Counted from the stretch's first letter, positions 3,543 through 64,000 are shown. The stretch is DNA of 64,000 bases from an uncultured virus (IMG/VR IMGVR_UViG_3300035520_000906) (IMGVR_UViG_3300035520_000906), one strand, 5' to 3'. Translations and numbers: made by a program. The notes: a model not told the origin generated them from the sequence alone.

Positions 3543-3558
3543 TGTTATAACCTCCAAA

Positions 3559-5524: not shown

Positions 5525-5558
5525 AAAAATCTGACCAACATTTTATATTGGTCAGATT
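5525..5558 (-). terminator. Intrinsic terminator
   Basis: AATCTGACCAA/TTGGTCAGATT stem followed by a T-run on the minus strand. Confidence 0.7.
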
Positions 5559-5568
5559 ACTTTTACTA

Positions 5569-10945: not shown

Positions 10946-10947
10946 GT

Positions 10948-26916: not shown

Positions 26917-26940
26917 TTTTATTATTTCCTCTCTGTGTTG

Positions 26941-29900: not shown

Positions 29901-30561
29901 GCTGATACTTACTATTTATCTGTCCAAAACAGTTAATCTTTAAACCTGTTGTCTCTGTATCATATGCTATGGGTCCATTATACTGGTCAAAGAAGCTAAA
30001 CAATTTCTCTGCTGTTTCATCATCATTTACGATGAAGTATTTCTTTCTCTGTAGCCATGTTATATCATCTTTCTCCAGTGCAATTTCTTGAACTGAACGT
30101 GTTTGTATAGCATCAAGGTCATCATCTACTATGTTCAAGTCCTTCTTAATTGTAGTCAGCTTGACATACTCTATGTTAGTAGGCATCTGAAAACTTTCTA
30201 TGTACTCCATTTCCAATCTCTTGTCAGCAGACTGGATGAAAGCGCCCACTACTTCCCCTCTGTAAAGCTGTATAGTATATTCTACTTTGCTCTTTACAAA
30301 TTCATGAGATGTCATTGCTCCTAACTCAAATGGCTGTGGAGTTCCATTCTTAGATGTACAACTTTTAACTCCTGCCAGAACCATCTGGGCTAACTCTTTT
30401 GCTCTTACGTTATTAAATGAATAAGACCCAGTGTCATCTACTTTGTATGCTGATACAATTGTTCCAGATGTAATCAATATAACTTCAGTATGAGCCTTTG
30501 TATGACTCATGATTGCACCATATGTAACATTGTTTGTAGTAAACTCTCCACGTGTAAACAT
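26941..30561 (-). CDS. polA: Family A DNA polymerase with 3'-5' exonuclease
   Basis: Exo YDTETTG, AHNGSFE, YAPTD; motif A DADYSQIEYR, motif B RSAAKSFNFGIPYG, motif C IHDE. Confidence 0.95.
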   Translation of the reverse strand: MFTRGEFTTNNVTYGAIMSHTKAHTEVILITSGTIVSAYKVDDTGSYSFNNVRAKELAQMVLAGVKSCTSKNGTPQPFELGAMTSHEFVKSKVEYTIQLYRGEVVGAFIQSADKRLEMEYIESFQMPTNIEYVKLTTIKKDLNIVDDDLDAIQTRSVQEIALEKDDITWLQRKKYFIVNDDETAEKLFSFFDQYNGPIAYDTETTGLKINCFGQINSKYQHDLIKYNKEHKDNPIRADKLVGIIFCVEEDTSYYFPCFNRKFKNLYDDLQSPIRNRIIQNTKALYTVGKYRESDTCIAEYWRNTPADEITSDCILMERVRNILETKHIVAHNGSFEYKVGLQYWIDTNLKDDTMILHQVAYKFRNGGGKAEPSNLKYLSKKELGIDQWELHDFFPNWKPDKDGLVRRKPGSKINNANQIDFSYMDYQGTRVYAPTDGDCTLGLFHKFKSDLLQNHKEMEYIYNVEVIVACAIGYMEFYGHRIDESKILHARSETMANKSQIISEIRQMIDYADEKELAAYKEIKEFRENQAQLKLKDDEFNEKLIELVGKLDAAIESNAEKQINLGSSAQVCDLFYNKLQIPCSEEKQSVAKKVIKALIKEKNDDGTPKYPVVHLYSKYKNEETLLSKFFDNLIYFTYPGGFIFSSFGQIATNTGRMSCSKPNCQQYPKVITKIIIPRDGYVMIDADYSQIEYRVLTAMAGNDWLAELFSNPDSDYHTLMASLMYGVDYSAVTSSMRSAAKSFNFGIPYGMGLGSLAILLTGKNTAQTRDEAAEKMDDYFKNQPKTKKFFANVKEMAQVNGYTKTLFNRYRYYSFTDKDGNVNNAKKAAALRQAGNAVIQGTAADIFKIGVARNFSFIRNNHLLGKMLIINMIHDEQLMEVDVQNLNMQRIVAEVGKNMQFKIDGFPPLYIGAGVGKAWGYAKGKQAEIHPTLLQQFTEEAKDIPIWRTEEQRKEEPYVDPSKVLKYFDDRVVEFRRQKVADYLSNPENWHKTIYPAISGLINLQFNYGRGDDAKAYVGPNGETYSDQEFLELNIADFLKENNINADASWFRATDNKAEDEEEDKEYSEGDEDDDDIMDMVEGDADVKAFTIVDESDKTFGSTIHDMINVFGTCLLKQQRVCGINTKNMYYKRKDALIDYLMKYLCDEDDPDGYQIVFLTDANILKYTGIYVKNLNSDKLEEAYKNANGRESDYTQGDVKTRSQAK

Positions 30562-30635
30562 CTTTCTCTCCTAATCAATTTATAATTTCTTCCAAATATA
30601 TTTATGATATTTGATACTGTTAATCCTATAATTAT

Positions 30636-32636
30636 TTACTGGCCTATCCATTCTAATTTTAAGTTACCTGAATCGTATATCTTCAAAAAATTAAGTTTTT
30701 TCATTATTTCATCTTCATTTAGATTTTCTGTTTCAAGCCAATTTTTTATTAAATCTGTTTTTTGGACTTGGTACTTTGTTAATACTTCTTTTCTATCATA
30801 AGATACCCATACATAATTTGGCTCACTTATTGGTGTAAGTGTTGTCTTGAATCCTAATTTTAAATATTCATTACCTGTAAATTTTGATATGTCTATACAT
30901 ATTACTATTGATTGTGGATTATACTTATCACAAAAATAACTAAATAATTTTTCAAGACCTCCTACTATATCAATATTGAATTTATTACAATATCTTGTTA
31001 TCTCATATTGATATTTATTGTTGTGTTTGAATTTACTAAATGATATTACTGATATAATCTCATTATTATAAAATAATCCTAAGTTTATATCGGCATAGCT
31101 GTAATTTTGTAAACTGTATCTATCCAAGAAGCTCTTTGCACTATCATCACTTATCTCATGTACTTCTGTATCTGTGTCATATATTATTTCTAACTTATCA
31201 TGTATGCAACTCTTTATATGATTACATATCTTTTTCCTCTTATTGTCGTTGTCCCATTCATGCTCAAATACATGAATTAGGTGTATTCCTTGCTTTGCAC
31301 ATGATATTGTTTTTTCTTGATGATAATATTTATCCTTCATATCATCTGAGTGCCAGTAGGTTCCGTTAAACTCTATGGCTAGCTTCTTTTCTGGGATGTA
31401 GATATCAAGTTCCTGACCATTTAGTATTAATCTATCAGATTGTATTATGCTATACTTTGATATACTATTTACATATTCAAATAGTTCAGTCTCTTTATTT
31501 GAAATGTTTGGAGCTATGTCTACAAGGTTTTCTAGTTTATACGTATGTATTGCATTTAATATCACTGATTTACATACGTCTAAGTCTGTTTGTAATTGAT
31601 ATACAGTTGGTTTAGTATTATATTTCTTTAGGTATTCCTCCATTTGTTCTCTGTTTTCCAGTGTATTTATTTGCCACATAGATCTAGGATTGTGTATCCT
31701 ATTTGGAGTTATATCCATGTATCTTTCTAATAATGTCATCTTGGATAATTTCTTAGACATACAACCACATGATTTTGTTGTACCATTGCGTAATGCATGC
31801 CCATATATGTTTTTAATAGTTCCGCATGAGCATTTACACTTCCATTTCATATCTCCTACATACTCTAATACTGTCCACTCACCAAATTGCTGTTCTGCTA
31901 AATCTATAATATTGGCTGAATGACCACATGATGTTGATCTACCTAGTCTTAATGATGACCCAGATACCCTACCTATAGCACCACAGGAACACTTACACTT
32001 CCAATATCCATTGTCTATGTAGTCAATAACCTCCCATTCTCCAAAGTGTTTTCCTTTTAAATCTATAAAATTGTTTGTTGCATGCCCGCAAGATGTTGAT
32101 CTCCCAAGTCTAAGTGACACACCATCAACTATCCTAGTGTTTCCGCAAGAACACTGACATAGCCATTGTTTACTACCTGCATATTTAATAACTGTCCATT
32201 CCCCAAACTTTTCATTGGTTATATCTTTTATACTAGCATATCTGCTTTCATGCCCACATGAAAGTGATTTATGACTTGTTAAGCTATATGTACTTACCTC
32301 TCTTTCTTCTCCGCATGAACATCTACATAGATAATGCTGGTTACCAGTATATTTAAGAACACTCCATTCACCTATTTTTGTTCCTTCTAATTTATTACGC
32401 ATTTTATGACCGCATGATAATGATTTTCCTGATGTTAGAAAGTATTTTTGCATAGCCTTATACGTTCCACAAGAACACCTGCACAGCCATAGCTTATCCC
32501 CAAAATAACCCACAACGTGCCACTCACCAAATTCCTTACCAGTTAAATCATCTTTAATGTATCCGTTTAAGTTTTTAATATATTTTCTGTAGTTATTATC
32601 ATTTATATATGAATAATCTATTTTACTTTTTGGCAT
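30636..32636 (-). CDS. Homing-endonuclease-like protein: 5 Cys repeats plus Vsr/DUF559-like nuclease (paralog of 25180..26916)
   Basis: Five copies of the same repeat; ELDIYIPEKKLAIEFNGTYWH. Confidence 0.8.
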   Translation of the reverse strand: MPKSKIDYSYINDNNYRKYIKNLNGYIKDDLTGKEFGEWHVVGYFGDKLWLCRCSCGTYKAMQKYFLTSGKSLSCGHKMRNKLEGTKIGEWSVLKYTGNQHYLCRCSCGEEREVSTYSLTSHKSLSCGHESRYASIKDITNEKFGEWTVIKYAGSKQWLCQCSCGNTRIVDGVSLRLGRSTSCGHATNNFIDLKGKHFGEWEVIDYIDNGYWKCKCSCGAIGRVSGSSLRLGRSTSCGHSANIIDLAEQQFGEWTVLEYVGDMKWKCKCSCGTIKNIYGHALRNGTTKSCGCMSKKLSKMTLLERYMDITPNRIHNPRSMWQINTLENREQMEEYLKKYNTKPTVYQLQTDLDVCKSVILNAIHTYKLENLVDIAPNISNKETELFEYVNSISKYSIIQSDRLILNGQELDIYIPEKKLAIEFNGTYWHSDDMKDKYYHQEKTISCAKQGIHLIHVFEHEWDNDNKRKKICNHIKSCIHDKLEIIYDTDTEVHEISDDSAKSFLDRYSLQNYSYADINLGLFYNNEIISVISFSKFKHNNKYQYEITRYCNKFNIDIVGGLEKLFSYFCDKYNPQSIVICIDISKFTGNEYLKLGFKTTLTPISEPNYVWVSYDRKEVLTKYQVQKTDLIKNWLETENLNEDEIMKKLNFLKIYDSGNLKLEWIGQ

Positions 32637-43382: not shown

Positions 43383-44324
43383 TTACTGAATCTTAATACT
43401 AGAGAATTTTGTTACAATCTTCTTTGCATAAGACTTAGCTGCCTCTGCTGCTTCAGAATCATTTAATGCTCCGCCAACAGCTTTCCAAGAGTGGTCAAGT
43501 TTAACAGTAGCTTCATCAGCTTCACCATCTGTATACTTGATAGCAGATACTGTAATACCACCAATGTTGTTGCTTATCTTAGCTTTGTGCTGAGCAAGTT
43601 TCTCAAATACAGATGTCTCAAATACACCGTAAATACTGTTAGCACCCATTCTCTGAATTGCTAAGGAATCTCTTACAGACTGTCCAGCTACTTTAACTAC
43701 TTCGCTGATAACCTTTGCATTGGACTTGCTAATTACATCAGTAAGTTTACTCATTTCTGTAGCTGATGTACAAGAAATGATTGCACCAACATAATCTGTA
43801 GCTACTCCAGTAACAGTACAGAAGTACATGATGTCAACAGTTGTATCACCCTTTGGAGCCTTAGCGATCTCAATTGTTCTTAATGGATATGTACCACCAA
43901 TAGCTGATACAATGTCTCCATCCTGTGTATGTCTAATCTTACCATTGCTGATTAAACCTTTGCTTGCTAAGCTAGTAGCATCTACTACGTTAAGTTCAGC
44001 AATTACACCGTTCTGTGTAAATACTGTGTAACCTACAAGTTTTCCGCCCTGTTCTACTCTATCAAGGATAACTGCTCTAGCAACTCCCTCTACCTGATTG
44101 CTTGCTGTGCTGATAAGTGTATACTTATCAAGTGCTCCGTTAGTAGACTCAATACCCTTTGCTCCAACTGCTAAGTTAGCTACGCTGATTTTTCCACCCT
44201 TGATTGCTTTGATTAGTTCAGCAGTTGCTATTGTAACTGTCTGATAATCAGAACTAATCAATGTATAAGCTGTGATATTGTCCTTGGAAGCTCCATGTCT
44301 TGTAATCATTGTATAATTCTTCAT
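43383..44324 (-). CDS. Hypothetical protein with two copies of the recurrent N-terminal module
   Basis: NITAYTL...ELIKAIKGGKISVANL and GKLVGYTV...SKGLISNG. Confidence 0.8.
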   Translation of the reverse strand: MKNYTMITRHGASKDNITAYTLISSDYQTVTIATAELIKAIKGGKISVANLAVGAKGIESTNGALDKYTLISTASNQVEGVARAVILDRVEQGGKLVGYTVFTQNGVIAELNVVDATSLASKGLISNGKIRHTQDGDIVSAIGGTYPLRTIEIAKAPKGDTTVDIMYFCTVTGVATDYVGAIISCTSATEMSKLTDVISKSNAKVISEVVKVAGQSVRDSLAIQRMGANSIYGVFETSVFEKLAQHKAKISNNIGGITVSAIKYTDGEADEATVKLDHSWKAVGGALNDSEAAEAAKSYAKKIVTKFSSIKIQ

Positions 44325-46565: not shown

Positions 46566-47286
46566 TTCTTTGTTCCTCCTGAAACTTGCTTTACTTTGTT
46601 TACATCTACATAATGACAACAAGTTGTACCTATTGTATGATTTATTTTGTTTGTTGTCATTGTATACCAACAATGATTTATTTCTGTATCTCTATATGCA
46701 CATGTTCTACATATCATTGGTATCCCATCTGTTTTTTCTTCTAAGTTTACTAATAACTTAGCTACCTTACGTCTTTCTTTTTCTTCTTGTGTACAAGTAT
46801 TAAGTATACTTATATACTTGTACCAGCATCACTTTTAGACGTTTTTTCTTTTTTGTGAGGTCCTTTCTTTACTGTATATCTTATATTATTGTTAATGATA
46901 AACTGTTTTAATACTTGGTAACTGACACAAATTTTATTTGCCATTGAGCTTATTGATTCGCCGTTATCAAAATCCTGTTGTAGTTTATCTACACCATATT
47001 TAACAATCTTCTCTGTATCAAGTTCTTGAGCACTCTTCTTAGGTTTTTTAATTTTATCTGTGTTAACCTTATCTTCTTGTATAGAATTTATATTGCTTTC
47101 TGTTTTCTCTACACAATCATGTGCTTTTACTAACTTGAACCCTCGTTTGATGATTTTGTTCAAGTCATCTATACACTTATCACACAAGTCATAACTATTA
47201 GTTCCTACTGTAATTGTATTTATATGTCCGTCAGTTACAATTTTACTACATTGTTTATTATCACATCTAAATGCTTCTACTTTCAT
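46562..47286 (-). pseudogene. Zn-finger/HTH/Cys-rich protein interrupted by an 8-bp duplication
   Basis: ORF stops at 46810 inside AAGTATAT-AAGTATAC; the other frame stays open to a TGA overlapping the next ATG. Confidence 0.6.
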
Positions 47287-47995
47287 ATTTTTGTCCCCTA
47301 TTCTTAAAATTAAAAGTTTCTAATAATATATTAATGATTACTACTACGATACACACCAATTGATTTGTTGATACTATATTTCTATTAGAGTAATATCTTA
47401 AATAATCTAAGCTAAATTTTAATATTGCATATGATATCAATGTTACTCTTACTGTTTTACTTTGTAACTTGTTTCTCAATAAATTAAGTATTATAAACAC
47501 AATTAAGAATGTTACTGATTCAAATAATTGTACTGGAAATAAATTCTGCATGTTCTTCTTAGTATCTATGTATGTAATATTTAATAATCCAGTATATCTT
47601 ATTCCATAGCAGCATCCTGCTAATAAGCACCCTATTTTTGATATTGAATACATAAGTCCTAAACTTAATATGTATGTTTCATATAATATATCCTTATTGT
47701 GTTTATTCATTTTTGTATATATTGATGTTCCAATTATCAAGCCTATCATTCCGCCTAAGCTTGAGAATCCTAACTGATTTGCTTCTTTATATTTTATCAG
47801 TTGCTCTATCATTGTAAATGTTATGCTACAATATAGAATTAATATTGTATTTAAAAACATTGAATATGCTATATGCTTATTTTCTACTCCGTTGTTTCTT
47901 AGTTTAACTGCTACATATAAATAACTTATTAAGAATGATAACATAAAACATATAGCATACTGTGATATTTTCCAATGTTGTATTGTTATTATCAT
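47267..47995 (-). CDS. lgt: Prolipoprotein diacylglyceryl transferase-like protein
   Basis: GFSSLGGMIG, KIGCLLAGCCYG, FPVQLFES, KFSLDYLR; multi-TM. Confidence 0.85.
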   Translation of the reverse strand: MIITIQHWKISQYAICFMLSFLISYLYVAVKLRNNGVENKHIAYSMFLNTILILYCSITFTMIEQLIKYKEANQLGFSSLGGMIGLIIGTSIYTKMNKHNKDILYETYILSLGLMYSISKIGCLLAGCCYGIRYTGLLNITYIDTKKNMQNLFPVQLFESVTFLIVFIILNLLRNKLQSKTVRVTLISYAILKFSLDYLRYYSNRNIVSTNQLVCIVVVIINILLETFNFKNRGQKYESRSI

Positions 47996-51777: not shown

Positions 51778-52884
51778 TTAATATCCTCCTGACTTTAATT
51801 GCTTTGTAAGTACCTTTCTATCTCTGTGTACTACATCTTCTATATCGTACTCTTCATTAAGTTCCTTTACACTTTTTAATCCTGTATACCACCCATATAC
51901 TCTTGATTCAAACATATCATCACTTGCAACTACATTAGAATCTTCATTCATACCAGTCATTCCAGCAGTGTATTTCTCAAATTTTTGTCTGTATGATTCA
52001 TAGTTTTCTTCTGCTTTATTAAACTGTACACATATGTCTGATGTATACATTCCAATGCTTCTGCAACTCATTACTATATCATTTATTACTGTGTATAATA
52101 GTACAACTCTTGTGCTGTCAATCATATCTGTATGAGCTGTATTACAAATAATATTTGATATCTCAATAAGTTTCATTGGAGTTGCTTCTTCATCATAGTC
52201 TTTAGTATCAATAATATTAAAGAAGAACACTGCTATTAACTTATCATCATTTGCCTTTCTAACTTCATACATAAAGCCCTTATCAATATAATTATTTGAT
52301 GCTTCATTTATATAGCTTGTATCCATATTATAAAATTCATTATAGGCTGTGATAAAGTTCTCTATTTCATCTGTTAATTTCTTAATCTTATTGATTTTTA
52401 TATTAACCTTATAAGTTACAAGTCTCTTTTTATGTGCTATTTTTGTATTCCACAGTGGAACTTCCAATGCCATTGTATTACTGTCAAACATCAATATGTT
52501 TTTATCTGTGAGCCATATGTACTCATTCAAATATTTTCTTGTAATCTCTATTAACTGTTTCTTATATTTATTTTTTAGATATGCTAATGTGCCATATACT
52601 GCTATGATATCATCAGTTTTTTTACTGTTACAATCACTACATAATGGTATAAGATTTTCAATCTTATTGTTTCCACCTTTATTTAAAGGTATAAAATGAT
52701 CAACTGTAAAGTCTTTATCCCCAACTGCTATATGTTTACCACACATAGCACATTTGCAATCAGTTTTCTTTGCTACTGCTTCTTTTATATCTCTAGTCAA
52801 CCATTCTCTCTCGTAGTAATTGCATCTATTAAGTTTTACACTATACTCAGAAGTACTTTCTTCCAATTTCTTTATGTCTCCCAT
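51778..52884 (-). CDS. HNH endonuclease with C-terminal extension
   Basis: CAMCG...TVDHFIPLNKGGNNKIENLIPLCSDCNSKK. Confidence 0.85.
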   Translation of the reverse strand: MGDIKKLEESTSEYSVKLNRCNYYEREWLTRDIKEAVAKKTDCKCAMCGKHIAVGDKDFTVDHFIPLNKGGNNKIENLIPLCSDCNSKKTDDIIAVYGTLAYLKNKYKKQLIEITRKYLNEYIWLTDKNILMFDSNTMALEVPLWNTKIAHKKRLVTYKVNIKINKIKKLTDEIENFITAYNEFYNMDTSYINEASNNYIDKGFMYEVRKANDDKLIAVFFFNIIDTKDYDEEATPMKLIEISNIICNTAHTDMIDSTRVVLLYTVINDIVMSCRSIGMYTSDICVQFNKAEENYESYRQKFEKYTAGMTGMNEDSNVVASDDMFESRVYGWYTGLKSVKELNEEYDIEDVVHRDRKVLTKQLKSGGY

Positions 52885-52983
52885 TGAAGTCCAATGCCCT
52901 CTCTTTCTACCCCTAAATATTAAAATAAGCAACTAACTATACTAAACAGTCAGTTGCTTATGTTGTACCTTAATTTTTAGTTG

Positions 52984-54414: not shown

Positions 54415-55343
54415 TTATCTTAAATTGTATGATTTTATCCAACAATGAATCGTTGAATCAGTTCTCCCATACATGCTGGCAATTTGTTTCTTTTGTATAC
54501 CAGCATCTAAGAGTTGTTTTAACTCTTCTTTAGATGGTTTTGGTGACTTTCCCTTTGCTGCTACATTTGAACATGCATTACACATTCCAGTCTTTGATTG
54601 TGATGTTATTGGTTTACCACATATTCTGCATGTTATTTTCTTATTACTTGCTTTAGCTACTTTACATTCTTTCATGTTATCATATTCATTTTTCCAGTCA
54701 TTAAATTGTTTATAATACTTATCTATGTCTTCACAATACAAAAAATGCATACTTAAATATTTATTTTTATACTTACATGCCTTACTTATTGCTTCTACCA
54801 CTGTCCATTTATTTAATGCTTGTGGTATATTTTCACTTATTAAGTACTCGGCACATTGTGAATAATTAACAAAAATTTTATTTAATTCTACACATATTAT
54901 CTGTCTACTTTGTGTTCTTATTTTAACCTTATTAGCTGATAATAATGTCAAAATTGTAATATCTGAACAATTATATTTTCTTGCTATATATATAACGAAC
55001 TATATCCAGATTTATATAATTGTATAATATCATCTATATCATCTTCTAATTTAGAATATGGTGCATTTCCACCAGGTGTTGAATTATACCCATTCTTATA
55101 TGAGTTAAAATATGAAATCCAATAAATTTCTCTTTCATTCAGTAGCTTACTATCACATTCCTCTATTAATTCAATATAAAAGTTATCAGACCCATACTTT
55201 TTTATTGCTCTATATAATTTAAGATGTTCACCTCTAGTATTTGCTATGTGTTCCTCAAATCTTTTACTTATAGGTCTTATTGTTTGCCCTATGTAAACTC
55301 TGCTATTAATCTTATTTCTAATTGCATAAATATATCCTATCAT
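54415..55343 (-). pseudogene. GIY-YIG homing endonuclease split by an extra TA in a (TA)5 run
   Basis: GYIY...YIGQT...REIYWI...GYN; removing TA near 54985 fuses both ORFs through HTH SSLYIARKYNCSDITILTLL. Confidence 0.8.
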
Positions 55344-55391
55344 ACTATGTACTCTCTTGTGTATGTGTCAAAATGCTTAATGATATTATAA

Positions 55392-55476
55392 TGCCGGTAA
55401 CAGGACTTGAACCTGCACCAGTATTTAGCTGAATAGGACCTAAACCTATCGCGTCTGCCAATTCCGCCATACCGGC
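55392..55476 (-). tRNA. tRNA-Leu(UAG)
   Basis: GCCGGTA acceptor, ATAGG-TT TAG GT-CCTAT, long variable arm, GTTCAAGTC; no encoded CCA. Confidence 0.95.
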
Positions 55477-55571
55477 ATGTATCTTTTGTTTTAATAAAGG
55501 GAGGTGACGAGCCTCCCCGACCTACGCAAATGTTGTCATCATTCTGCGTGGAACTATGTTTTAGTTCCAAA

Positions 55572-55683
55572 GCACTTTTAGCAAGAGTTGCACTTGCATT
55601 TTGTAATGATTACTACTTTCTTTCATAATTTAGAAAATAGCTCGCGCTACAAAACTGATACTAACTGCTCATCATAAAAGCAC
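55572..55683 (-). ncRNA. tRNA-like RNA with extended anticodon arm
   Basis: Acceptor-like GTGCTTTTA/TAAAAGTGC, D-like hairpin, T-arm GCAAG-TGCAACT-CTTGC. Confidence 0.55.
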
Positions 55684-55958
55684 ACGGTATATAGACCTTT
55701 GCAACTATATACCATTTTGAGGTGATTTCTGTTTCTGTGTCATGTAGATTTTCACTTACTCTTGAAGCTACTTTTTCAACTATAAGTATATATCGTTTCA
55801 ACTTATAGTCTATACATTACGTTACTGTGTCCAGGTCTGCCTCGTGCGTTGGCACGCTTTTACATTCATTTAATCCCTTATGTACTAGCCTATCATAATA
55901 TATTATGGAACCTTATATAAGGCTGAATGACAGGTTTTAAATTGTAATCCTATTAAAA

Positions 55959-56540
55959 TTAAATGTTTCCTCTAGGGAAATTCATTCTTACATATGATAT
56001 TGCATCACTACTCAATAAGTCAAATGCATTGTCCCCATACAAAAATTGAAGCTCATTTGCAATCATTAATTGTGTGATTAGTCCCTTGTTATCGTCTGCT
56101 AAACCAGATAAATCTTTGAAATCTTTTTCTCTATATGATACTAATTTCATACATATAGCATCTAAATCACATATTTTATATACGTTTAAGCAACTGTATG
56201 ATTTTACTGGAATTGCATTTGCCTTTAACCTAACACTAAATGATTTTGTTTTAGTTGCATCTGTATTTAACCAGTCACTTGTGATTGAATACATATGTTT
56301 TACTTTGTTTATACATGACTTTATATCAATGGATGGCTCAATATAACTATCAATATCTTCTGTCATTGTTCTAAATGTATGCCCTAATATCAATGATGAT
56401 CCACCAACTAATAACATATCAATCTTAATGTACCCATATTTTTCAAATATGCAATTATTAAGTGCTTCCAAATATATGTTCATGTTATATTTACTTATAT
56501 ATGGATATTCAGCTTCGTGTGGCATGTATTCCTCCAACAA
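55959..56540 (-). CDS. DUF6036 / AbiEii-like nucleotidyltransferase
   Basis: LLVGGSSL...RTMTEDIDS...MKLVSYREKDFKD. Confidence 0.8.
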   Translation of the reverse strand: MLEEYMPHEAEYPYISKYNMNIYLEALNNCIFEKYGYIKIDMLLVGGSSLILGHTFRTMTEDIDSYIEPSIDIKSCINKVKHMYSITSDWLNTDATKTKSFSVRLKANAIPVKSYSCLNVYKICDLDAICMKLVSYREKDFKDLSGLADDNKGLITQLMIANELQFLYGDNAFDLLSSDAISYVRMNFPRGNI

Positions 56541-57000
56541 CTGTATCTATCTCTGACACGATTAAATTGTATTTATAGAATATATCTATTCTATTTTTAT
56601 AACTATCTAGTATCTTATTATATGCCCCAAAGTTACTAAACATAACAGGAGTCTCACCAAATAATAGTTTATCTAATTTCTTACCATTGTATAAACTAAC
56701 TATCTCTGGTAATTCGAGATTTTCGCTATTACAAATATATTCAATGTATGCTATTGCATATAGTTGCTCCCACTCTCTCCACAATGATATTCTTTCTTTC
56801 GAAAGATATTCATATATTAACTTTTCACTACCCCAAGATTTTCTGTAATGCTCTAATGCACTTATAAAGGAATAGTAATTTGTATAATCATATTCTTTGT
56901 AATAATCTAAATGCAGTGATTCAAATTCCTCTTTGCATTTTAATTGGTACTCATTGTATTGTTTTTCTTCTTCTGGAGTAATATCAAACATATTTTTCAT
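56509..57000 (-). CDS. Partner (putative antitoxin) of the DUF6036 gene
   Basis: Overlaps the downstream gene; LYAIAYIEYIC...LPEI...Y..KKL. Confidence 0.6.
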   Translation of the reverse strand: MKNMFDITPEEEKQYNEYQLKCKEEFESLHLDYYKEYDYTNYYSFISALEHYRKSWGSEKLIYEYLSKERISLWREWEQLYAIAYIEYICNSENLELPEIVSLYNGKKLDKLLFGETPVMFSNFGAYNKILDSYKNRIDIFYKYNLIVSEIDTVVGGIHATRS

Positions 57001-57020
57001 GCTATTTTCTCCTATTAAAG

Positions 57021-57127
57021 TGACATATACCTCTAGTTCTAGTGAACTAATCGACTAGAACGATCTGAAACTGAAACCCATAAGAGAAAGAGAGGGTCGT
57101 TCACGTCAAACTAGATAATATATGTCA
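57021..57127 (-). ncRNA. Long interrupted hairpin with pyrimidine-rich loop
   Basis: TGACATATA/TATATGTCA, TCTAGTT/AACTAGA, GAACGA/TCGTTC nested stems. Confidence 0.5.
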
Positions 57128-57159
57128 GTACTAAACCTCTAGTAAGTTTAATACTTAAT

Positions 57160-57469
57160 TCATTTCAATAACCTACACATGCACCCTATCGTCTGCACCC
57201 TGCCTCTATCACTTCTATACAGAAGTGACCTATCCAACATCCTTGGTTATTGAACATTGTCATCGCCACCAGTGATGACTTACAGTAGTCATTTGCCACC
57301 TTGAGAAGTTCGTTACCGACTCGTATGGGAACTTAGGTTCTACTTCTCTCAACTACTCCATAGTCGTATCGTTGTCGACCAACGTCAACCCTTAATCATT
57401 CCCGCTCATGCGGGCTCATCCCTGAGGAACATCATATAAAATATGTGCTATTCCGTTGAGCATCCTCAG
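57160..57469 (-). ncRNA. Unrecognised ~310-nt structured RNA, copy B
   Basis: Paralog of 57531..57835 with identical 23- and 33-nt blocks and compensatory stem changes. Confidence 0.8.
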
Positions 57470-57530
57470 TAGATTAGCAGACTTTTACTGCATTGATCAC
57501 TTAAGCATACAGTTTAATTATATGCTTAAG

Positions 57531-57835
57531 TCATTACATAGCCTACTGCTAGATAAATCTAGTCCACAACCTCTCCACAACCTTAGCTATGTACATTGCC
57601 ACCGCCACAGTGATGACTTATGATAGTAATTTAACAACCTTGAGAAGTTTGTTACCAACTCATACTCCCTAGGCCTAATAAACTTTCGTTTAAACTCCTG
57701 TTTGTATGGGAACTTAGGTTCTACTTCTCTCAACTATCCCTTAGCTGTATCGCTTTCAGCCGACGTCAACCATTAACTGTTTAATGAGGAACACATATAA
57801 AACGAGTCATAAGTGCTATTCCGTTGAGCATCCTC
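57531..57835 (-). ncRNA. Unrecognised ~305-nt structured RNA, copy A
   Basis: Starts 3 nt after tRNA-Leu; covaries with copy B. Confidence 0.8.
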
Positions 57836-57838
57836 TAA

Positions 57839-57918
57839 TGCGGATAGAGGGACTCGAACCCTCAAGCCGAAGCGTGGCAGCTTAAATGCCATGTGTTTGC
57901 CAATTTCACCATATCCGC
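57839..57918 (-). tRNA. tRNA-Leu(UAA)
   Basis: GCGGATA acceptor, TGGCA-TT TAA GC-TGCCA, GTTCGAGTC. Confidence 0.95.
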
Positions 57919-58746
57919 TTATTTTATACTTTCTATAAATTTATTGTATTTTCTCTGCATAACTCCGTATTGTTTATTCTTTGTTATATAGAGCTGTCTA
58001 AATTTTGTAAAGGATTCTTTACTGTGTATATAGATAATCCTAATACTGTCTCTACTGCTTACACTGTATTCTATACCAATACCTCTTAGTATTTCTTGTA
58101 TACCTTCTGCATTTGAATAATTAGATGCTATTGTTATAGCATTAGGAGATACTGACACAGAACCATCCCCATCAAAGAACCCAATCATAAAATCTATTCT
58201 ATACTCGTAAGGTATATAATTTATAAATGGTATGTCCTTGTACTTTTTACCCTGTACTATCCCAAATTTTGCAAGGTCATTTACTATTTCATCTGAAATT
58301 ATCTTAATGTTTACTGCATCAAATTCATGTTTAATTCCATTGCTATCAGTATAACTAGCTGTGTGGTCATGAACTTCATAGTCAGACTCAGTAAATTCTA
58401 GAAATCTTTGTAATGTCTCTCTATCTCTTGCATTTAATACAAATCTTAATGAGTTATCTACAACACTTCCATCAGATGCTATAAATCCTAACCAATATGC
58501 TGTATCTGCATTAATTGTTTTGAATATATTGTCATTTACCTTATGCTTTCTGAAATCTTTTTCAGGACATTTTTCTTTTCCAGTGTATCCCTTTAATCCT
58601 TGATTTGTCTTAAATACACCAATCCTAATAGCATGTTCTCTATATGTTTTGTAGTTTATTCCAAGCATTCTTGCTGCTTCAGCAGCTGATCTAGAGTTCT
58701 CTGCCGCATATGCAATTTGTGCATCTGTTACATCTATTGTATTCAT
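57919..58746 (-). CDS. Double-motif LAGLIDADG homing endonuclease with N-terminal HTH
   Basis: AYWLGFIASDGSV and DFMIGFFDGDGSV; stop codon abuts the tRNA. Confidence 0.9.
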   Translation of the reverse strand: MNTIDVTDAQIAYAAENSRSAAEAARMLGINYKTYREHAIRIGVFKTNQGLKGYTGKEKCPEKDFRKHKVNDNIFKTINADTAYWLGFIASDGSVVDNSLRFVLNARDRETLQRFLEFTESDYEVHDHTASYTDSNGIKHEFDAVNIKIISDEIVNDLAKFGIVQGKKYKDIPFINYIPYEYRIDFMIGFFDGDGSVSVSPNAITIASNYSNAEGIQEILRGIGIEYSVSSRDSIRIIYIHSKESFTKFRQLYITKNKQYGVMQRKYNKFIESIK

Positions 58747-58769
58747 TTCATTACACCCGCTTTATAAAA

Positions 58770-59305
58770 GTGGCTTAAGGTCACCACAACCGCACATCTG
58801 TTGATTACTGGAACATTTGCTCTTTCCAATAGTTGTCTTTCCAACTGTCCACCAGTTTAACCTAGCTAATGCCACGTAGTATAGACTTCAGCTTAAGAAC
58901 TCAACCTTCCTAAGTCATACCCGATTTATGTCGGGATATCCACCCACTCTATCTAACTGGCAAGTAATCCACTATGGTGCTTCCAACCAGTTTGTAGAAC
59001 TCAACCACATTTGTCTACTTGTGCTACCCCAATATACTTCACAGTAGCTTTCCACATTCAATTTTGCAGGTCATTCCAACCCACTGGACAGACTCAACCA
59101 TCAACATACTGTCTTGTATCGCCCCATTGACTTGCCCATAGCGACTTTCCAACCACATGCATTCTCGGGAACTTCCCGAAGGTCCATGCAAACCTTTCAA
59201 ATTGCCGTCGACAAGCAATACGAGGTAGGTCATTCACACTAGCTTAACTACACCTGAGCTGCTCGATAACATGCCGCCTTGTTAAGTTCCCTCTAACAGT
59301 GCTCT
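58770..59305 (-). ncRNA. Large ornate ncRNA (~540 nt), ROOL/GOLLD-like in size and context
   Basis: GC-richer non-coding block after tRNA-fMet with more than 10 hairpins and repeated GGTTGAGT and GGTTGGAA motifs. Confidence 0.7.
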
Positions 59306-59310
59306 TTGAG

Positions 59311-59384
59311 TTGCGGGGATAGGACTTGAACCTACATACTCTTGGTTATGAGCCAAGTGAGCTTCCATTGCTCGTCACCCCGCG
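59311..59384 (-). tRNA. tRNA-fMet(CAU), initiator-like
   Basis: CGCGGGG with C1:A72 mismatch; CTTGG-CT CAT AA-CCAAG. Confidence 0.9.
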
Positions 59385-59394
59385 ATAATATAAA

Positions 59395-59524
59395 TTTGTG
59401 ACCTTCCACAATCACAATGCTGAGAAAATCTGTAAATCCACAGTTGTATACAACTGCCTCAGCCCTACACATTAGTGCCTCAGAAGGTTTCCGCTTTTAT
59501 GTGCCACCTACAAGTAATCACAAA
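59395..59524 (-). ncRNA. Candidate 130-nt structured RNA
   Basis: TTTGTGA/TCACAAA, GCACAT/ATGTGT, GCTGAG/CTCAGC, CAGTTG-TATA-CAACTG. Confidence 0.55.
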
Positions 59525-59585
59525 GAAGAAAATGTACACTTTCTTTACTGAGTGTGTACTAACTCTTTTAAGGTCTTTCGACCAG

Positions 59586-59659
59586 TGGACCATGTAGGAC
59601 TCGAACCTACGACCGCTCGGTTATGAGCCGAATGCTCTGACCAACTGAGCTAATGGTCC
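59586..59659 (-). tRNA. tRNA(CAU), probably Ile2 (lysidine)
   Basis: GGACCAT acceptor and body typical of Firmicute tRNA-Ile2; CT CAT AA loop. Confidence 0.85.
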
Positions 59660-59687
59660 AAATTTTAATGTAGTTCTTATCTTTTAA

Positions 59688-59763
59688 TGTAACAAGGAAA
59701 TAACTTACTAACTGATGCCTCGTCAATGATGTCTTACCTGCGTTCAGCCACTTCCTTACTACA
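59688..59763 (-). ncRNA. Candidate small RNA, 18-bp G-U-rich stem
   Basis: TGTAGTAAGGAAGTGGCT pairs with AGTTATTTCCTTGTTACA. Confidence 0.55.
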
Positions 59764-59765
59764 AG

Positions 59766-59841
59766 TTGGAATGCTGGGATTCGAACCCAGGACAGACGTG
59801 GGGTATAAGCCTACCGCTCTAACCAACTGAGCTACATTCCA
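59766..59841 (-). tRNA. tRNA-Ile(UAU)
   Basis: TGGAATG/CATTCCA acceptor, GTAGG-CT TAT AC-CCCAC (one mismatch), GTTCGAATC. Confidence 0.85.
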
Positions 59842-59889
59842 TTAATATGTATTATCAGAAATTACTTTCTGTCTCAACCTTACTTAATT

Positions 59890-59918
59890 ATTATATCATC
59901 TTTACTTTCTTTTGTCAA
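59890..59918 (-). promoter_or_regulatory. Consensus sigmaA promoter
   Basis: TTGACA-17 nt-TATAAT with extended TG. Confidence 0.9.
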
Positions 59919-59982
59919 GAACTTTTTAAAACCTTTTTCAAATAAATTTGAAATCAATTTTTATATCCTTAACACATTTATT

Positions 59983-60011
59983 ATATTATCATATAATATT
60001 TATTTTGTCAA
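59983..60011 (-). promoter_or_regulatory. Second tandem sigmaA promoter
   Basis: TTGACA-17 nt-TAATAT with extended TG. Confidence 0.65.
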
Positions 60012-60046
60012 CTACTTTTTTCAAAAATTTTTTATATTTTGAAAAG

Positions 60047-60129
60047 TGTAGGTAGTGGGACTTGAACCCACACTCATTAAATGAACAGCATCCTTAGTGC
60101 TGCCTGTCTGCCAATTCCAGCATACCTAC
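60047..60129 (-). tRNA. tRNA-Leu(AAG)
   Basis: GTAGGTA acceptor, CAGCA-CT AAG GA-TGCTG, long variable arm. Confidence 0.9.
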
Positions 60130-60142
60130 AAATCTTTATAAG

Positions 60143-60222
60143 TGCTCCCTGAGGGACTTGAACCCTCACCCTCTCGGAACAGATTTTGAATCTGTCGTGT
60201 CTGCCTATTCCACCAAAGGAGC
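60143..60222 (-). tRNA. tRNA-Leu(CAA)
   Basis: GCTCCTT acceptor, ACAGA-TT CAA AA-TCTGT. Confidence 0.95.
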
Positions 60223-60235
60223 TTACTTATTAAAG

Positions 60236-60312
60236 TGGAGCCTACGTGAATCGAACACGCCTGATTTCCTCTTTGCAAGAGAGGTGACCACCCCAATGCA
60301 GTCCCAGACCCC
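60236..60312 (-). tRNA. tRNA-Ala(UGC)
   Basis: G3:U70 pair, CCTCT-CT TGC AA-AGAGG. Confidence 0.9.
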
Positions 60313-60379
60313 ATATTACAGGAACCTATTATTCTTTACACCAAAAGAGTTTTAATTGCTGTATGGTTCCCAATATAAA

Positions 60380-60453
60380 TCGACGTTGCCGGATTCGAAC
60401 CGACGGCCTCTTGATCCCAAATCAAGCGCTCTACCAAACTGAGCCAAACGTCG
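60380..60453 (-). tRNA. tRNA-Pro(UGG)
   Basis: CGACGTT acceptor, CTTGA-TT TGG GA-TCAAG. Confidence 0.95.
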
Positions 60454-60465
60454 TTATTATTTTAG

Positions 60466-60544
60466 TGTGCCTAGAGGGACTTGAACCCTCACGCCGAAGC
60501 AACTGGGCTTAAACCAGTTGTGTCTGCCATTCCACCACAGGCAC
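60466..60544 (-). tRNA. tRNA-Leu(UAA)
   Basis: GTGCCTG acceptor, ACTGG-TT TAA GC-CCAGT. Confidence 0.95.
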
Positions 60545-60579
60545 ATTTATTTGTATCTCTTAATCATTTCTACACTCTT

Positions 60580-60607
60580 ATTATACATCATAATTACTTT
60601 TTGTCAA
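60580..60607 (-). promoter_or_regulatory. sigmaA promoter heading the tRNA array
   Basis: TTGACA-16 nt-TATAAT. Confidence 0.8.
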
Positions 60608-60679
60608 CTACTTTTTTAAAAATTTATTAGAAAAATTTCATAATGTTTTACTAATTTTTAGTTAAGTTTAATAAACATA

Positions 60680-60775
60680 CTAACTGTATTGGTATGTTTC
60701 AATGTTTATCAATCTTAAGTTTGTTTTGGCTCCCAATATAGCAGGGTCACCGAGGTCAGCTAATGCGGGGTCCAT
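60680..60775 (-). CDS. 31-aa small ORF
   Basis: AGGAGG RBS; MDPALADLGDPAILGAKTNLRLINIETYQYS. Confidence 0.4.
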   Translation of the reverse strand: MDPALADLGDPAILGAKTNLRLINIETYQYS

Positions 60776-60794
60776 CTTGTTTCCTCCTGTACAT

Positions 60795-60833
60795 AAAAAT
60801 AACCGTTAAGCTCATTCAATGGCTTAACGGTTA
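60795..60833 (-). terminator. Intrinsic terminator
   Basis: TAACCGTTAAGC/GCTTAACGGTTA stem plus T-run. Confidence 0.75.
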
Positions 60834-60874
60834 GTATCTTTATTATGAAAGTCATTAAATTAGCTAAAACCCTA

Positions 60875-60979
60875 TTAAATTTGCACGTTTATAAGACCTA
60901 TCAAAGCTAATATTGATAGGTTTGCTAGTGCTGCGGGTAAGCTAACTATGCTATTTACATTATTTCTAATGCAATCCAT
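60875..60979 (-). CDS. 34-aa hydrophobic small ORF
   Basis: AAGGAG RBS; MDCIRNNVNSIVSLPAALANLSILALIGLINVQI; followed by a terminator. Confidence 0.45.
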   Translation of the reverse strand: MDCIRNNVNSIVSLPAALANLSILALIGLINVQI

Positions 60980-61034
60980 GACTTTTTCTCCTTAAATATT
61001 TATTAAAAACATACTTTTATTATGTGAATGTAGT

Positions 61035-62228
61035 TTATTTCGTCTTTAATTTTTCTCTCAGGCTTTCACAATCTATTTGTCCAAGCTTTCTTTGTTTCTT
61101 TAATTCACTTATGCATTCTCTTATCTTTATATCTCTAATTGAATCAACACTTATAGCTGTTACATATGATGTTTCTAATTCAGTACTTATGTATAAACTT
61201 TGTAATCTCTCAAGCCTCATAAAATTTGTAACTGATAATGATTTTAAATTCTTAGGAAACTTAACATCAACTGGATATGTATTCATAAATATTCCATCAT
61301 GCAACTTCTCTATTTTTGTATCGTATATATCTATGATTTCTAATGGAGTAAATTTGAATGCCTGACTACCTATCAATCTTAAATCTCCACTTATAGAAAT
61401 TTTATGTATGTGAGATGTTAAGAATGCTCCAGTTCCTATTATACTAAGTTTATCATTAAAATCTACTGTCAAATCACACTCTGAGCAATATGCAAATGCA
61501 AAATCTCCAATCTCTGTTACATTGTCTCCTAATCTAACATAAGATAGTCCTTTACAATTTGCAAATGCTGTTTTACCTATTTTTTCTACTGAATTACCTA
61601 TGTAAATACTTTTTATATGTGTATCACAAAAAGATTTGTCTGCTATGTATTTTACAAAGTCAGGTATTACTAGCTGACTATTTATGTCTTTGCTATTTCT
61701 ATATCCTGTAACTACTAATTCATTGTACAAGTCAAAATCATAAGATAATGTACTCTTACCAGTCATTGCTAATTTATAATTATATGATTCCATCTTATAA
61801 ATTAGATATGCTCGTTTATTTATTGTAGGTATCTTACCAAATTTAGTTGTTATACCATTACCAACAAATTGAATACCACTAAACTTATCTCTGTTGCTCT
61901 TTATTTCTTGTAATGTCATTCTTCTTAAAATACAATTATTATCTGCCACTAGATATGCTCCATCTTGGAATTTAAAAAGAATAACTAATTTATTTCTTAG
62001 GTCTACTACTGTACCTTTTCTATTATAGTTTACAAGTATTATCTTTTTATATTTACTGTCTGGTACGTAATGTTCTGCCTTTACTGCTTTCCCACTTTGT
62101 ATCATACTATCTATTTCGTATTGAGTTATACTTGTTATTGTCATATAATTTGTATTTATTGCACTATATATTTCTCCATAGGGTTCTTCTGATGCTTTAT
62201 ATAATATAATTGTATAATTACTATTCAC
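61035..62228 (-). CDS. BspA-type LRR protein
   Basis: IGKTAFANCKGLSYVRLGDNVTEIGDFAF. Confidence 0.88.
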   Translation of the reverse strand: MNSNYTIILYKASEEPYGEIYSAINTNYMTITSITQYEIDSMIQSGKAVKAEHYVPDSKYKKIILVNYNRKGTVVDLRNKLVILFKFQDGAYLVADNNCILRRMTLQEIKSNRDKFSGIQFVGNGITTKFGKIPTINKRAYLIYKMESYNYKLAMTGKSTLSYDFDLYNELVVTGYRNSKDINSQLVIPDFVKYIADKSFCDTHIKSIYIGNSVEKIGKTAFANCKGLSYVRLGDNVTEIGDFAFAYCSECDLTVDFNDKLSIIGTGAFLTSHIHKISISGDLRLIGSQAFKFTPLEIIDIYDTKIEKLHDGIFMNTYPVDVKFPKNLKSLSVTNFMRLERLQSLYISTELETSYVTAISVDSIRDIKIRECISELKKQRKLGQIDCESLREKLKTK

Positions 62229-62255
62229 TTTGCACCTCCCTATAATTTTGATTGT

Positions 62256-63050
62256 TTATCTTTTAAATAAGCTGAATATTGACACTTTCTTATCTTTATC
62301 TCCAGGATATTCTGTCTCAATAAGTTTGTTAGCTGTCATTTTATTTTTTATTGATTGCTTTCTATAATTGTTTTTATAGGTATCTCTAAGTCTTACTTCA
62401 AATTCACTTAATATATCTCTGCTACCACACCTATAAACCTTAACTTCAACTGTACTCTTAAACACATCAGATATGTCTACTTGATTTGATTTGGTTTCTA
62501 TCTCACCCTCATGTATTTCAGTTGAGTCACTTCTATCTGATACATCATCATTGTATCTTATAATTACTTTTAAATTTTCAGGTTTTTGATTATTTACATT
62601 AAATAGTATATTGTAATCTGAAAAATAGTATGTTCCATTCTCAGTCATGTCACCATAATATCTTGTTCCGCAGTCTACTTTATTTATTATTTTAACATCT
62701 GCATTATACTTATACATACCGAGTAATGCAGCAGCTTTTACTGCTATATCATCTATTTCTGCAAAGGTGTCTTTCGGATTTTTTCTTGTAGGTGCATCCT
62801 TAGTTGCATGCTCACCCTTAAATTCTTTTCTCAAACTGAAATCTGATGAGTCACTTATTTTTGGTGTTGTTGACATTAATCTTCCATCTGATGTTAATGT
62901 TAAATTATCAACTTTTAGTTTATTTGATGCTATTAAATTTTTTAACTCAGTTGCACCTATGTCCTGTATATTTCTGTTAGCATCTTGTAGTTTGTATCCT
63001 ATTATTTTTCCTGTATTGTCTCTAAATTTATATATACAGGTTACTTCCAT
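62256..63050 (-). CDS. Hypothetical protein with recurrent N-terminal module
   Basis: EVTCIYKFRDNTGKIIGYKLQD...ELKNLIASNKLKVDNLTLTSDGRL. Confidence 0.8.
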   Translation of the reverse strand: MEVTCIYKFRDNTGKIIGYKLQDANRNIQDIGATELKNLIASNKLKVDNLTLTSDGRLMSTTPKISDSSDFSLRKEFKGEHATKDAPTRKNPKDTFAEIDDIAVKAAALLGMYKYNADVKIINKVDCGTRYYGDMTENGTYYFSDYNILFNVNNQKPENLKVIIRYNDDVSDRSDSTEIHEGEIETKSNQVDISDVFKSTVEVKVYRCGSRDILSEFEVRLRDTYKNNYRKQSIKNKMTANKLIETEYPGDKDKKVSIFSLFKR

Positions 63051-63071
63051 TTCTATACTACCTCCTTAAAT

Positions 63072-64000
63072 CTATCTGTTTAGTTCAATTACCTCCATGA
63101 AATAATCATAATCTTGCCTGTATAAACTGTACATTTCCACTAAGCTTATCCAACCAAGTCTATGAAATTCTTCTTCTGTTATTGCTTTGTAATTTGCTTT
63201 ATTATGTTTTCCAGTTTTCATAGCTCGTAATGTATCTTTAGTGTATAAGTCTATTTCCTTTAAAGATTTAGTTGTTGATATTCTAGGAAATGAATACATT
63301 GCCCAACCAAATGTTGTATCATTACTTATTGCACAAAATAAATTTTTATTATTAAGCTGTCTTATTATTCTTCTTGCTACTATTTCAAATGACTCATGAT
63401 CTTTTTCAATACATATTCTACCTTTTCTACACCATCTATGTATTTGTTTCTTAATCTTTTGTTTTGCATGGTCAGATATGTCTATCTTCCCATCGCCCAT
63501 TAGCTTAAGTCCTAAATACTCTATGTCATCTCCAGGCTCGAACCATGTATATTTTTCTGGATTCATTGTTAATCCATACTGCTCCAAAAAATCAATTATT
63601 ATATCTAAGTCTTTTTGTAAATCCTCTTTTGACTTATCTAAAACTATTATGTCATCACTATATCTTGCATATACCTTATTTTTATCTTCAAAGTATTCAT
63701 CACAAGGTTTTAAACACCAATTTGCAAAGAAGCTTCCAAATGCACACCCAGGAATTAATGCCTTCCATTCTTCAATTTCTTTGCCGTTCCACATAACTTT
63801 ATCAGATAACATTAAATTTTCAACAGTCTTTTTTAATCCCCCATTGAATAATTCATTTATCATTTCAGCAACCTTTTCTCTTGAAACGCTGTTGAAATAA
63901 GCATGTATGTCAACCTTTACACCAAATCTAAGTTCATCATTTCTATTATCCTTGATGTATTGAATTGCATGACCTGTACTTTCACCAGTTTTATATGAAA
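63072..64000 (-). CDS. Reverse transcriptase (YSDD) with maturase-like C-terminus; 5' end outside the window
   Basis: Frame open to the edge: SYKTGES..AI, KVDIHAYFNSV, LIPGCAFGSFFAN, YARYSDD, GLTMNPEK, IEYLGL, GWAMY..SLKEIDLY..LR. Confidence 0.92.
   Translation of the reverse strand, partial: SYKTGESTGHAIQYIKDNRNDELRFGVKVDIHAYFNSVSREKVAEMINELFNGGLKKTVENLMLSDKVMWNGKEIEEWKALIPGCAFGSFFANWCLKPCDEYFEDKNKVYARYSDDIIVLDKSKEDLQKDLDIIIDFLEQYGLTMNPEKYTWFEPGDDIEYLGLKLMGDGKIDISDHAKQKIKKQIHRWCRKGRICIEKDHESFEIVARRIIRQLNNKNLFCAISNDTTFGWAMYSFPRISTTKSLKEIDLYTKDTLRAMKTGKHNKANYKAITEEEFHRLGWISLVEMYSLYRQDYDYFMEVIELNR

Follow-up and report, generated by a model that had tools for sequence, protein, structure and literature searches.

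A UG26-like reverse transcriptase of a likely huge phage, and the two accessory proteins and tandem RNA units that neighbor its relatives

The gene that runs off the end of the stretch of viral DNA analyzed here (64,000 nucleotides, hereafter the window) encodes a class 2 UG/Abi reverse transcriptase (RT). Because the RT_UG26 profile matches it best from end to end and the RT nevertheless falls in a separate sister clade, we call it UG26-like. In the relatives that make up this clade the RT gene has a conserved neighborhood, which contains two proteins, A (~600 aa) and B (~300 aa), and an RNA whose structure is supported by covariation. By analogy with the phage-borne UG27 systems, we are inclined to believe, with modest confidence, that the RT together with A and B copies the central hairpins of an array of RNA units into short DNAs for the benefit of the phage.

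The RT open reading frame (ORF) enters the window from beyond position 64000 and ends with a TAG stop codon at 63072-63074, which leaves 308 codons visible (Table 1). Its full-length relatives measure 412-442 aa, and ~107 N-terminal codons would therefore lie beyond the window; the whole RT would have ~415 aa, with its C-terminal three quarters in the window. The motifs DIHAYFNSV, ALIPGCAFGSFFAN, LIPGCAFGSFFAN, YARYSDDIIVL and EYLGLKL are present and intact, and judging by them the enzyme looks active. Pfam RVT_1 matched the fragment at 68.8 bits, above its cut-off of 29.6 (E = 7e-19). The NCBIfam profile for group II RT/maturases, TIGR04416, aligned with residues 2-260 at 72.8 bits against a cut-off of 300, and this alignment extends to profile position 348 of 353, which indicates that a thumb/X-like tail is present. 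The other NCBIfam matches were also below their cut-offs (Drt3a, 62 versus 200 bits; retron St85, 58.6 versus 235 bits). The original prediction, made from the sequence of the window, had described an RT with an intact YSDD, an atypical motif 4, a YLG motif and a maturase X-like tail that stands 21 nt from the next gene, in a window with no retron, diversity-generating retroelement (DGR) or group II intron RNA. All of these motifs were found in the ORF at 63072-64000, the tail is the one reached by TIGR04416, the spacer is exactly 21 nt long and has AAGGAGG inside it, and Rfam returned tRNAs only. The prediction had left the class as group II-like or unknown-group; the unknown-group half of this proposal stood, in the form of a UG26-like RT, and the likeness to group II proved to be a distant one.

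Table 1. Positions of the RT gene and of the features next to it in the window
Feature	Coordinates	Strand	Basis
UG26-like class 2 UG/Abi RT, 3' part (308 codons + TAG)	63072..64000	-	ORF, RVT_1, RT_UG26
Spacer from the RT stop to the next ATG (63050), 21 nt with AAGGAGG ribosome-binding site	63051..63071	-	sequence
264-aa ORF, predicted, directly 3' of the RT	62256..63050	-	ORF, ATG at 63050
BspA-type leucine-rich-repeat (LRR) protein, 397 aa; context, no shown membership in the RT system	61035..62228	-	Pfam LRR_5, E 9.3e-31
Array of 8 tRNA genes with perfect TTGACA-16-TATAAT promoter-like site (60607-60580)	59310..60607	-	ARAGORN, promoter scan

Among the PADLOC profiles RT_UG26 was the best for the RT fragment (E = 4.7e-70, 234 bits), with residues 1-293 aligned on positions 105-395 of 398, and the runners-up were UG27 (5e-31) and UG17 (2e-23). 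The same profile was best for seven of seven full-length clade members, which scored 267-286 bits over positions 3-397 of 398, about half of the 511-530 bits that canonical UG26 RTs reach on it. On the UG27 profile the fragment and the full-length members scored 106-148 bits, and less on the retron, Drt and group II profiles; weaker scores were obtained on UG17 (81-108 bits) and Drt9 (62-109 bits). The identity of the RT to canonical UG26 is ~30-35 % (about 32 %). Of the 1,097 candidates in the protein search, 440 were relatives at E <= 1e-3; the 120 relatives listed are 61-92 % identical to the RT and mostly 412-430 aa long, one listed at 100 % is the window's own 263-aa ORF, and the closest relative among the matches listed is P0001 (415 aa), whose RT is 92 % identical. 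A scan of species genomes returned mostly genes of 30-35 % identity from rumen and gut metagenome-assembled genomes (MAGs) labeled Prevotella, Bacteroidales, Lachnospiraceae and Clostridia, and these are canonical UG26.

The original prediction had also proposed that the RT be placed in a phylogeny, and we did so with a quick maximum-likelihood tree of 66 rows, in which support is given by SH-aLRT only. The 28 rows of the clade (support 96) and the 35 rows of canonical UG26 (support 99) fell on opposite sides of this tree, the window fragment was sister to P0001 (support 100), and two true UG27 RTs stood on a long separate branch. UG26 thus appears, from sequence comparison, to be the nearest known group, with the RT of the window outside it in a sister clade. 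The solved structures nearest to the RT by sequence are those of group II intron RTs (5hhj, E = 1.7e-22; 7uim, E = 6.6e-22), and the DRT9 structure 9ioa matches at E = 4.1e-16. One further locus, L081, which came from peptide scans of viral_contigs, was rejected; it carries a different RT type, and those scans gave nothing related.

All the long ORFs of the window lie on the minus strand, the GC content is 0.30-0.36, and 31 of the 54 ORFs sent to Pfam were without a family. The gene content includes a family A DNA polymerase, SbcCD-like and primase-like proteins, two DUF5131 genes, a D12 methyltransferase and endonucleases of the HNH, GIY-YIG and LAGLIDADG types. The tRNA genes number 10, Rfam gave nine at gathering score, and between 54000 and 64000 Rfam gave nothing credible besides tRNAs at E <= 0.1. 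No terminator-like site was found on the minus strand from 60500 to 64000, so that the RT, the 264-aa ORF and the LRR gene are not separated by one. The original prediction had called the RT phage-borne, and this is likely: the replication genes, the homing endonucleases and the tRNA array agree with it, and the counterpart was a search for capsid, portal and terminase genes that found none within the 64-kb window. The contigs that carry relatives of the RT are AT-rich and reach 720,900 bases, and the four long relative contigs that were sampled have the composition and the tRNA arrays seen in the window. The arrays adjoin the RT in L093, L089, L086 and L091, and the window genes at 49-54 kb are syntenic with the region downstream of the RT module in L093. 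Since contigs of this size and composition, with their tRNA arrays, suggest huge phages, the carrier is likely to be a huge phage, of rumen or gut communities.

Several other features of the window were recorded. The family A DNA polymerase (26941-30561; 1,206 aa) is flanked, in the region 25180-32636, by ORFs of 578 and 666 aa, which PHROG places in homing/HNH endonuclease families (E = 1e-47 and 3e-79). A LAGLIDADG homing-endonuclease ORF (57919-58746) ends directly against the gene for tRNA-Leu(UAA) (57839-57918), and an HNH ORF (51778-52932) and a GIY-YIG ORF (54984-55343) are near it. Beside the same tRNA-Leu, an ORF-free stretch holds two direct repeats of 73 nt (57323-57395 and 57704-57776) that are 85 % identical and 381 nt apart; the two copies gave no consistent fold (z of -2.3 versus +1.3). 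Two further genes, at 13136-13882 and 47267-47995, code for a protein with an EAL domain (E = 1.6e-39), perhaps a c-di-GMP phosphodiesterase, and for an LGT prolipoprotein diacylglyceryl transferase (E = 2.4e-22).

The ORFs around the RT were compared in ten well-flanked loci, and HMMs were then run over the 4,876 ORFs of 160 loci; the clade is represented by 19 loci, canonical UG26 by 140, and at least 79 are metagenome loci. Protein A gave 10 HMM hits in nine loci and protein B nine hits in nine loci, all of them in the clade, and module copies of a third protein, C, a Dam-like (Pfam D12-class adenine) methyltransferase, were found in six loci, again in the clade only. The gene order is B-A-C-x-RT in L089, where all the partners are upstream of the RT; A ... 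1,336-aa ORF-C-RT-B in L082 and L093, where other genes intervene over the ~6 kb that separate the RNA array and A from the RT; A-RT-x-x-C-B in L086; A-A'-RT-B-C in L097; A-RT-B-C in L095, whose GC content is 0.465 versus ~0.31 elsewhere; and A-RT-B in L092. A linkage that outlasts both rearrangement and a divergence of the RTs to 44-76 % identity argues for function and not for mere synteny. In a set of 5.8 billion proteins A has 62 relatives and B has 89, all of them free of Pfam domains and many of them on contigs of the same sizes as those of the RT.

The members of A and B that were tested matched no Pfam family, the profile searches of the PDB gave nothing for A and a best E of 0.85 for B, and the ESM Atlas gave no usable match for either. 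The AlphaFold model of B (pLDDT 86.9, pTM 0.87) found its best match in the PDB at E = 0.12 with Foldseek, at Z = 2.1 in the wide VIA-align search and at E = 0.077 in BFVD, and the whole model of A (pLDDT 86.6, pTM 0.47) found its best at E = 0.082 with Foldseek in the PDB. According to these models, both proteins have confidently predicted structures with no match to a known fold in the collections searched. The extra conserved small ORFs of the module loci gave no Pfam family.

Some of these loci have features of their own. An ORF of 1,336-1,351 aa with no Pfam family (L082:4496-8551 and L093:5167-9177) is located between the array and the methyltransferase-RT-B group, and is confined to L082 and L093, the loci closest to the window. 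L086, on a 262-kb contig, has a ROOL RNA (308 bits versus a gathering score of 99) and a tmRNA among tRNAs at 3083-3673 and 5353-5743, just upstream of the RT module. In L091 the region 10001-11158 encodes an RT that is 52 % identical by tblastn, and yet table 11 gives an ORF of 187 aa there; this RT may be broken or read in another code.

A repeat scan of L089 revealed three 39-nt repeats spaced 161-177 nt in the 540-nt gap that follows A, and this motif also occurs after A in L082 and L093. With five units RNAalifold gave 41 pairs, 18 of them with compensatory changes. A model built from five units identified 10 further units in L082, L093, L086, L083, L084 and L088 (E = 1e-11 to 2e-19), and a second covariance model, used with filters off, added six in the more distant L095, L097 and L092 (E = 1e-9 to 1e-6), for a total of 21 units in 10 of the 19 clade loci. 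The units are ~140 nt each, occur singly or in tandem up to three, and are all on the strand of the RT; they occupy either the gap that follows A or the one that separates the RT from B. Nine clade loci gave no unit, and six of those nine are cut within the RT or less than 1 kb upstream of it; in L090 and L091 the sequence upstream of the RT extends over 4.8 kb or more and gave no unit.

The structure of a unit combines a long closing stem with three hairpins (a small 5' one, a variable central one and another that is small and conserved) and is completed by a pseudoknot. In alignments that were fitted to the model structure, the pseudoknot excepted, and in which the kinship of the sequences inflates the shuffle statistics, 14 distinct units were paired at 92.3 % (shuffled, 64.4 %; slid by 1-3, 32-41 %) with 30 of 41 pairs changed on both sides, 11 units that include the distant ones were paired at 92.0 % (shuffled, 57.3 %; slid, 31-41 %) with 39 of 46 pairs changed on both sides, and the pseudoknot taken by itself was paired at 97.2 % (shuffled, 61.3 %; slid, 21-57 %) with five of six pairs changed on both sides. 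The pseudoknot, in which the loop of the 5' hairpin pairs with a 3' single-stranded stretch, is absent from the model, and five of its five pairs covary in the second alignment. The central hairpin is the most sequence-variable part of the unit and keeps its pairing. Rfam matched no family on the units, and no intron or retron family, in the loci of four relatives (L086, L089, L093 and L097). The units had no short matches elsewhere in the DNA searched, and hence no target was found. The original prediction had suggested that the template of the RT, its partner genes or an array of repeats may lie upstream; this was borne out in the relatives, whose loci contain A, B, the methyltransferase and the array of RNA units.

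The corresponding searches of the window gave for A a sole HMM match, to a 313-aa ORF at 43383-44324 (E = 4.1e-7), for B a best match of E = 0.044, and for the RNA unit, with the filters of the model off, nothing below E = 0.42. As A, B and the RNA units are absent from these 64 kb, they would lie upstream of 64000, in the manner of L089. The records of P0001 (the RT), P0156 (a B) and P0234 (an A) agree in their sources and in the size of the contig, 70,202 bases; on the basis of this agreement, and not of coordinates, the contig of P0001 appears to carry A and B too.

The 264-aa ORF that follows the RT matched no family in Pfam, NCBIfam, PADLOC or PHROG. With phmmer, against 1.84 billion representatives, it gave 518 matches at E <= 1e-3, nearly all on residues 2-65 alone. 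This N-terminal domain of ~65 aa (KCIxKFRDKNGKIxGYRLQD...NLTLTSD), for which no Pfam family was found, heads 518 clusters whose C-terminal parts are unrelated and 71-616 aa long. A comparison of the ORF family with A by hhalign gave a probability of 81.9 % (E = 1.1e-5) over 45 columns, at residues 111-155 of A.

We propose that the RT acts in a module with A, B, often the Dam-like methyltransferase, and a transcript that has one to three tandem units of ~140 nt. From every unit the RT, with A and B, would copy the variable hairpin in the center, and the short single-stranded DNA so made would serve the phage in some way. The use of the RNA as template, the need for A and B and the role of the cDNA are suggested by the analogy with UG27, the presence of the module upstream of 64000 in this genome by the contig of P0001 and by the synteny of the window with L093. 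This presence has its own alternative, in which the RT of this genome is solitary, or is partnered with the 264-aa protein instead of A and B, the module having been lost or replaced. The ORF stands where L082 and L093 have B, it begins 21 nt downstream of the RT with a strong ribosome-binding site, and the stretch of ~45 residues that it shares with A could be taken as a further sign of partnership; but its N-terminal domain is so widespread that its presence is no argument for a link between ORF and RT. Although L090 keeps B and the RT with neither A nor an RNA unit in 11 kb, the partners in L089 are all upstream of the RT, which corresponds to a position outside this window, and A and B appear to be on the contig of the 92 % identical RT. 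We therefore regard loss or replacement of the module in this genome as quite improbable.

Two other readings concern the nature of the RT itself. All of its best profiles come from a defense library, and, in the sources available to us, the class 2 UG RTs DRT2, DRT9 and DRT10 are RNA-templated antiviral enzymes, so the RT could be a DRT-like system of defense or superinfection exclusion carried by the phage, which would turn its own RNA into a toxic or signaling DNA when a rival infects and would use A and B as effectors. We consider this unlikely. A and B have no recognizable effector domain, and the HipA-like kinase ORF inside the L086 module, which would suit a defense role, is below the Pfam cut-off (23.5 versus 27 bits). 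According to the available text of Mestre et al. 2022 (PMC9226505), association with defense is inconclusive for UG26 and absent for the phage-borne UG27. The module is moreover syntenic beside replication genes and tRNA arrays across RTs that are 44-76 % identical, and a place kept over such a divergence looks like that of a core phage function and not of a swappable island. The remaining reading is in our judgment very improbable; it takes the enzyme for a retron or DGR RT, or for a group II maturase that has been domesticated or has decayed, and places the RNA partner upstream. It could draw on the group II intron RTs that are the nearest solved structures and on the NCBIfam group II profile that spans residues 2-260, but the curated cut-offs are missed widely (group II, 72.8 of 300 bits; retron St85, 58.6 of 235 bits). 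Retron RTs are marked by a VTG motif in region 7. In the window, tRNAs aside, and in the loci of the four relatives, Rfam gave no match to an intron, a retron or another RNA family, and the upstream regions of the relatives contain A, the methyltransferase or the new RNA units, with no intron domains. In search of the TR/VR pair of a DGR, a repeat scan of 55000-64000 gave only repeats that derive from tRNAs and one pair of 73 nt, in which the differences are not specific to adenine, and the repeat scan of the relatives' loci gave no TR/VR-like repeats.

The reading that we favor, in which the RT copies the hairpins of an RNA array with the help of A and B, can be extended, more tentatively, to the clade as a whole. 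The clade may constitute a previously undescribed RT system of huge phages that has its own family of pseudoknotted ~140-nt template RNAs outside Rfam, two accessory proteins without fold relatives in the PDB and often a Dam-like methyltransferase. It would make a few different short cDNAs per genome for a phage function, for example the priming of replication or the decoying of host defenses, and would be independent of UG27, either convergent with it or distantly related.

Class 2 UG RTs write unusual DNAs from small RNAs, among them de novo genes, homopolymers and telomere-like repeats. The phage-borne UG27 copies arrays of hairpin RNAs. If our reading is true, the clade would be a second lineage with the same plan and a different RT clade, different helpers and a different RNA family, which would make the plan a recurring phage strategy, and it would provide an independent system for learning what the short cDNAs do. 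It would also supply the first RNA partners for UG26, an uncharacterized group, including a separate RNA in the canonical bacterial loci. The compact loci, in which A, two units, the RT and B take up ~4 kb, are directly testable.

Among the known systems, UG26 is the one whose RT is most alike: it gives the best profile, matched end to end over the 398 positions of RT_UG26, and in both the RT has ~400 aa with no extra known domain. The neighborhoods differ. Canonical UG26 loci have an ORF of ~200 aa just upstream of the RT in 109 of 140 cases, which is absent from the clade loci, and they have none of A, B and C, unlike the clade. In the 74 canonical loci with both ORFs, the gap between the partner and the RT has a median of 113 nt. 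A single, highly conserved element of ~120 nt occupies this gap in 60 of the 74 loci, which come from rumen and gut MAGs (for example L002:7840-7966), and RNAalifold on 16 copies gave 28 pairs, 13 of them with compensatory changes; the element is probably the UG26 non-coding RNA (ncRNA), and it goes unmentioned in the available text of Mestre et al. 2022 (PMC9226505). In the same text UG26 is a small group within class 2; it counts 35 members, nine of which have a Vsr-like YcjD protein beside them, and no RNA is mentioned for it. In the literature, as far as the available texts go, UG26 was found in that paper and in a cold-seep virus preprint that names it in passing, and our literature search returned no account of RNA arrays in UG26 or of huge-phage RTs.

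In its layout the clade is closest to UG27, for which the available text of Mestre et al. 2022 (PMC9226505) gives a phage-borne RT, two clusters of partners without family and a putative ncRNA. The available part of the more recent preprint (10.64898/2026.09.22.753630) describes loci in which the RT is accompanied by two accessory proteins, one small and one large, and by arrays of units of ~150 nt that have a basal hairpin and a pseudoknot, and reports cDNAs of 50-100 nt from the central hairpin, which are lost in YSAA mutants or on deletion of either accessory protein. UG26 has 0 occurrences in the text of this preprint, whose locus lists might include our clade. In general plan the clade resembles UG27: an RT that is phage-borne, in the clade probably so, goes with a smaller and a larger helper, neither assigned to a family, and with tandem units of ~140-170 nt whose flanks are conserved and in which a basal hairpin and a pseudoknot accompany a central hairpin of variable sequence. 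The true UG27 of Bacteroides phage BS-TP1 has an RT that scores 755 bits on RT_UG27, versus 117-148 bits for the full-length members of the clade, and a 1,350-nt gap after the RT with repeats ~170 nt apart, of which there are ~7 copies, versus 1-3 units in the arrays of the clade; the motifs of the RNAs differ as well. We took as UG27 helpers the ORFs of ~150 and ~365 aa that are common to L161 and L162, one of which is the BS-TP1 locus; the helpers of the clade have 600 and 300 aa versus about 365 and 150 aa, and A and B compared with those ORFs gave hhalign probabilities of <1 % and HMM E-values >0.04. The RNA model R1 scored E ~0.1 on the UG27 array. With no sequence similarity between the helpers and an RNA match at this level, the analogy with UG27 is one of layout and not of shown homology. 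The Dam-like methyltransferase often linked in the clade is a further difference from UG27.

DRT9/UG28, DRT10/UG17 and DRT2/UG2 belong to the same class of RTs and use, according to the sources available to us, a neighboring ncRNA as template. They are bacterial defense systems with one ncRNA and neither A nor B, and a SLATT protein was not seen in the clade. The group II intron RT/maturases share fingers, palm and thumb with the RT and include its nearest solved structures by sequence, whereas the clade has no intron RNA and no endonuclease domain, and its score is far below their cut-off. Set against these systems, the loci of the clade appear to be a new form of the phage systems that combine an RT with an RNA array.
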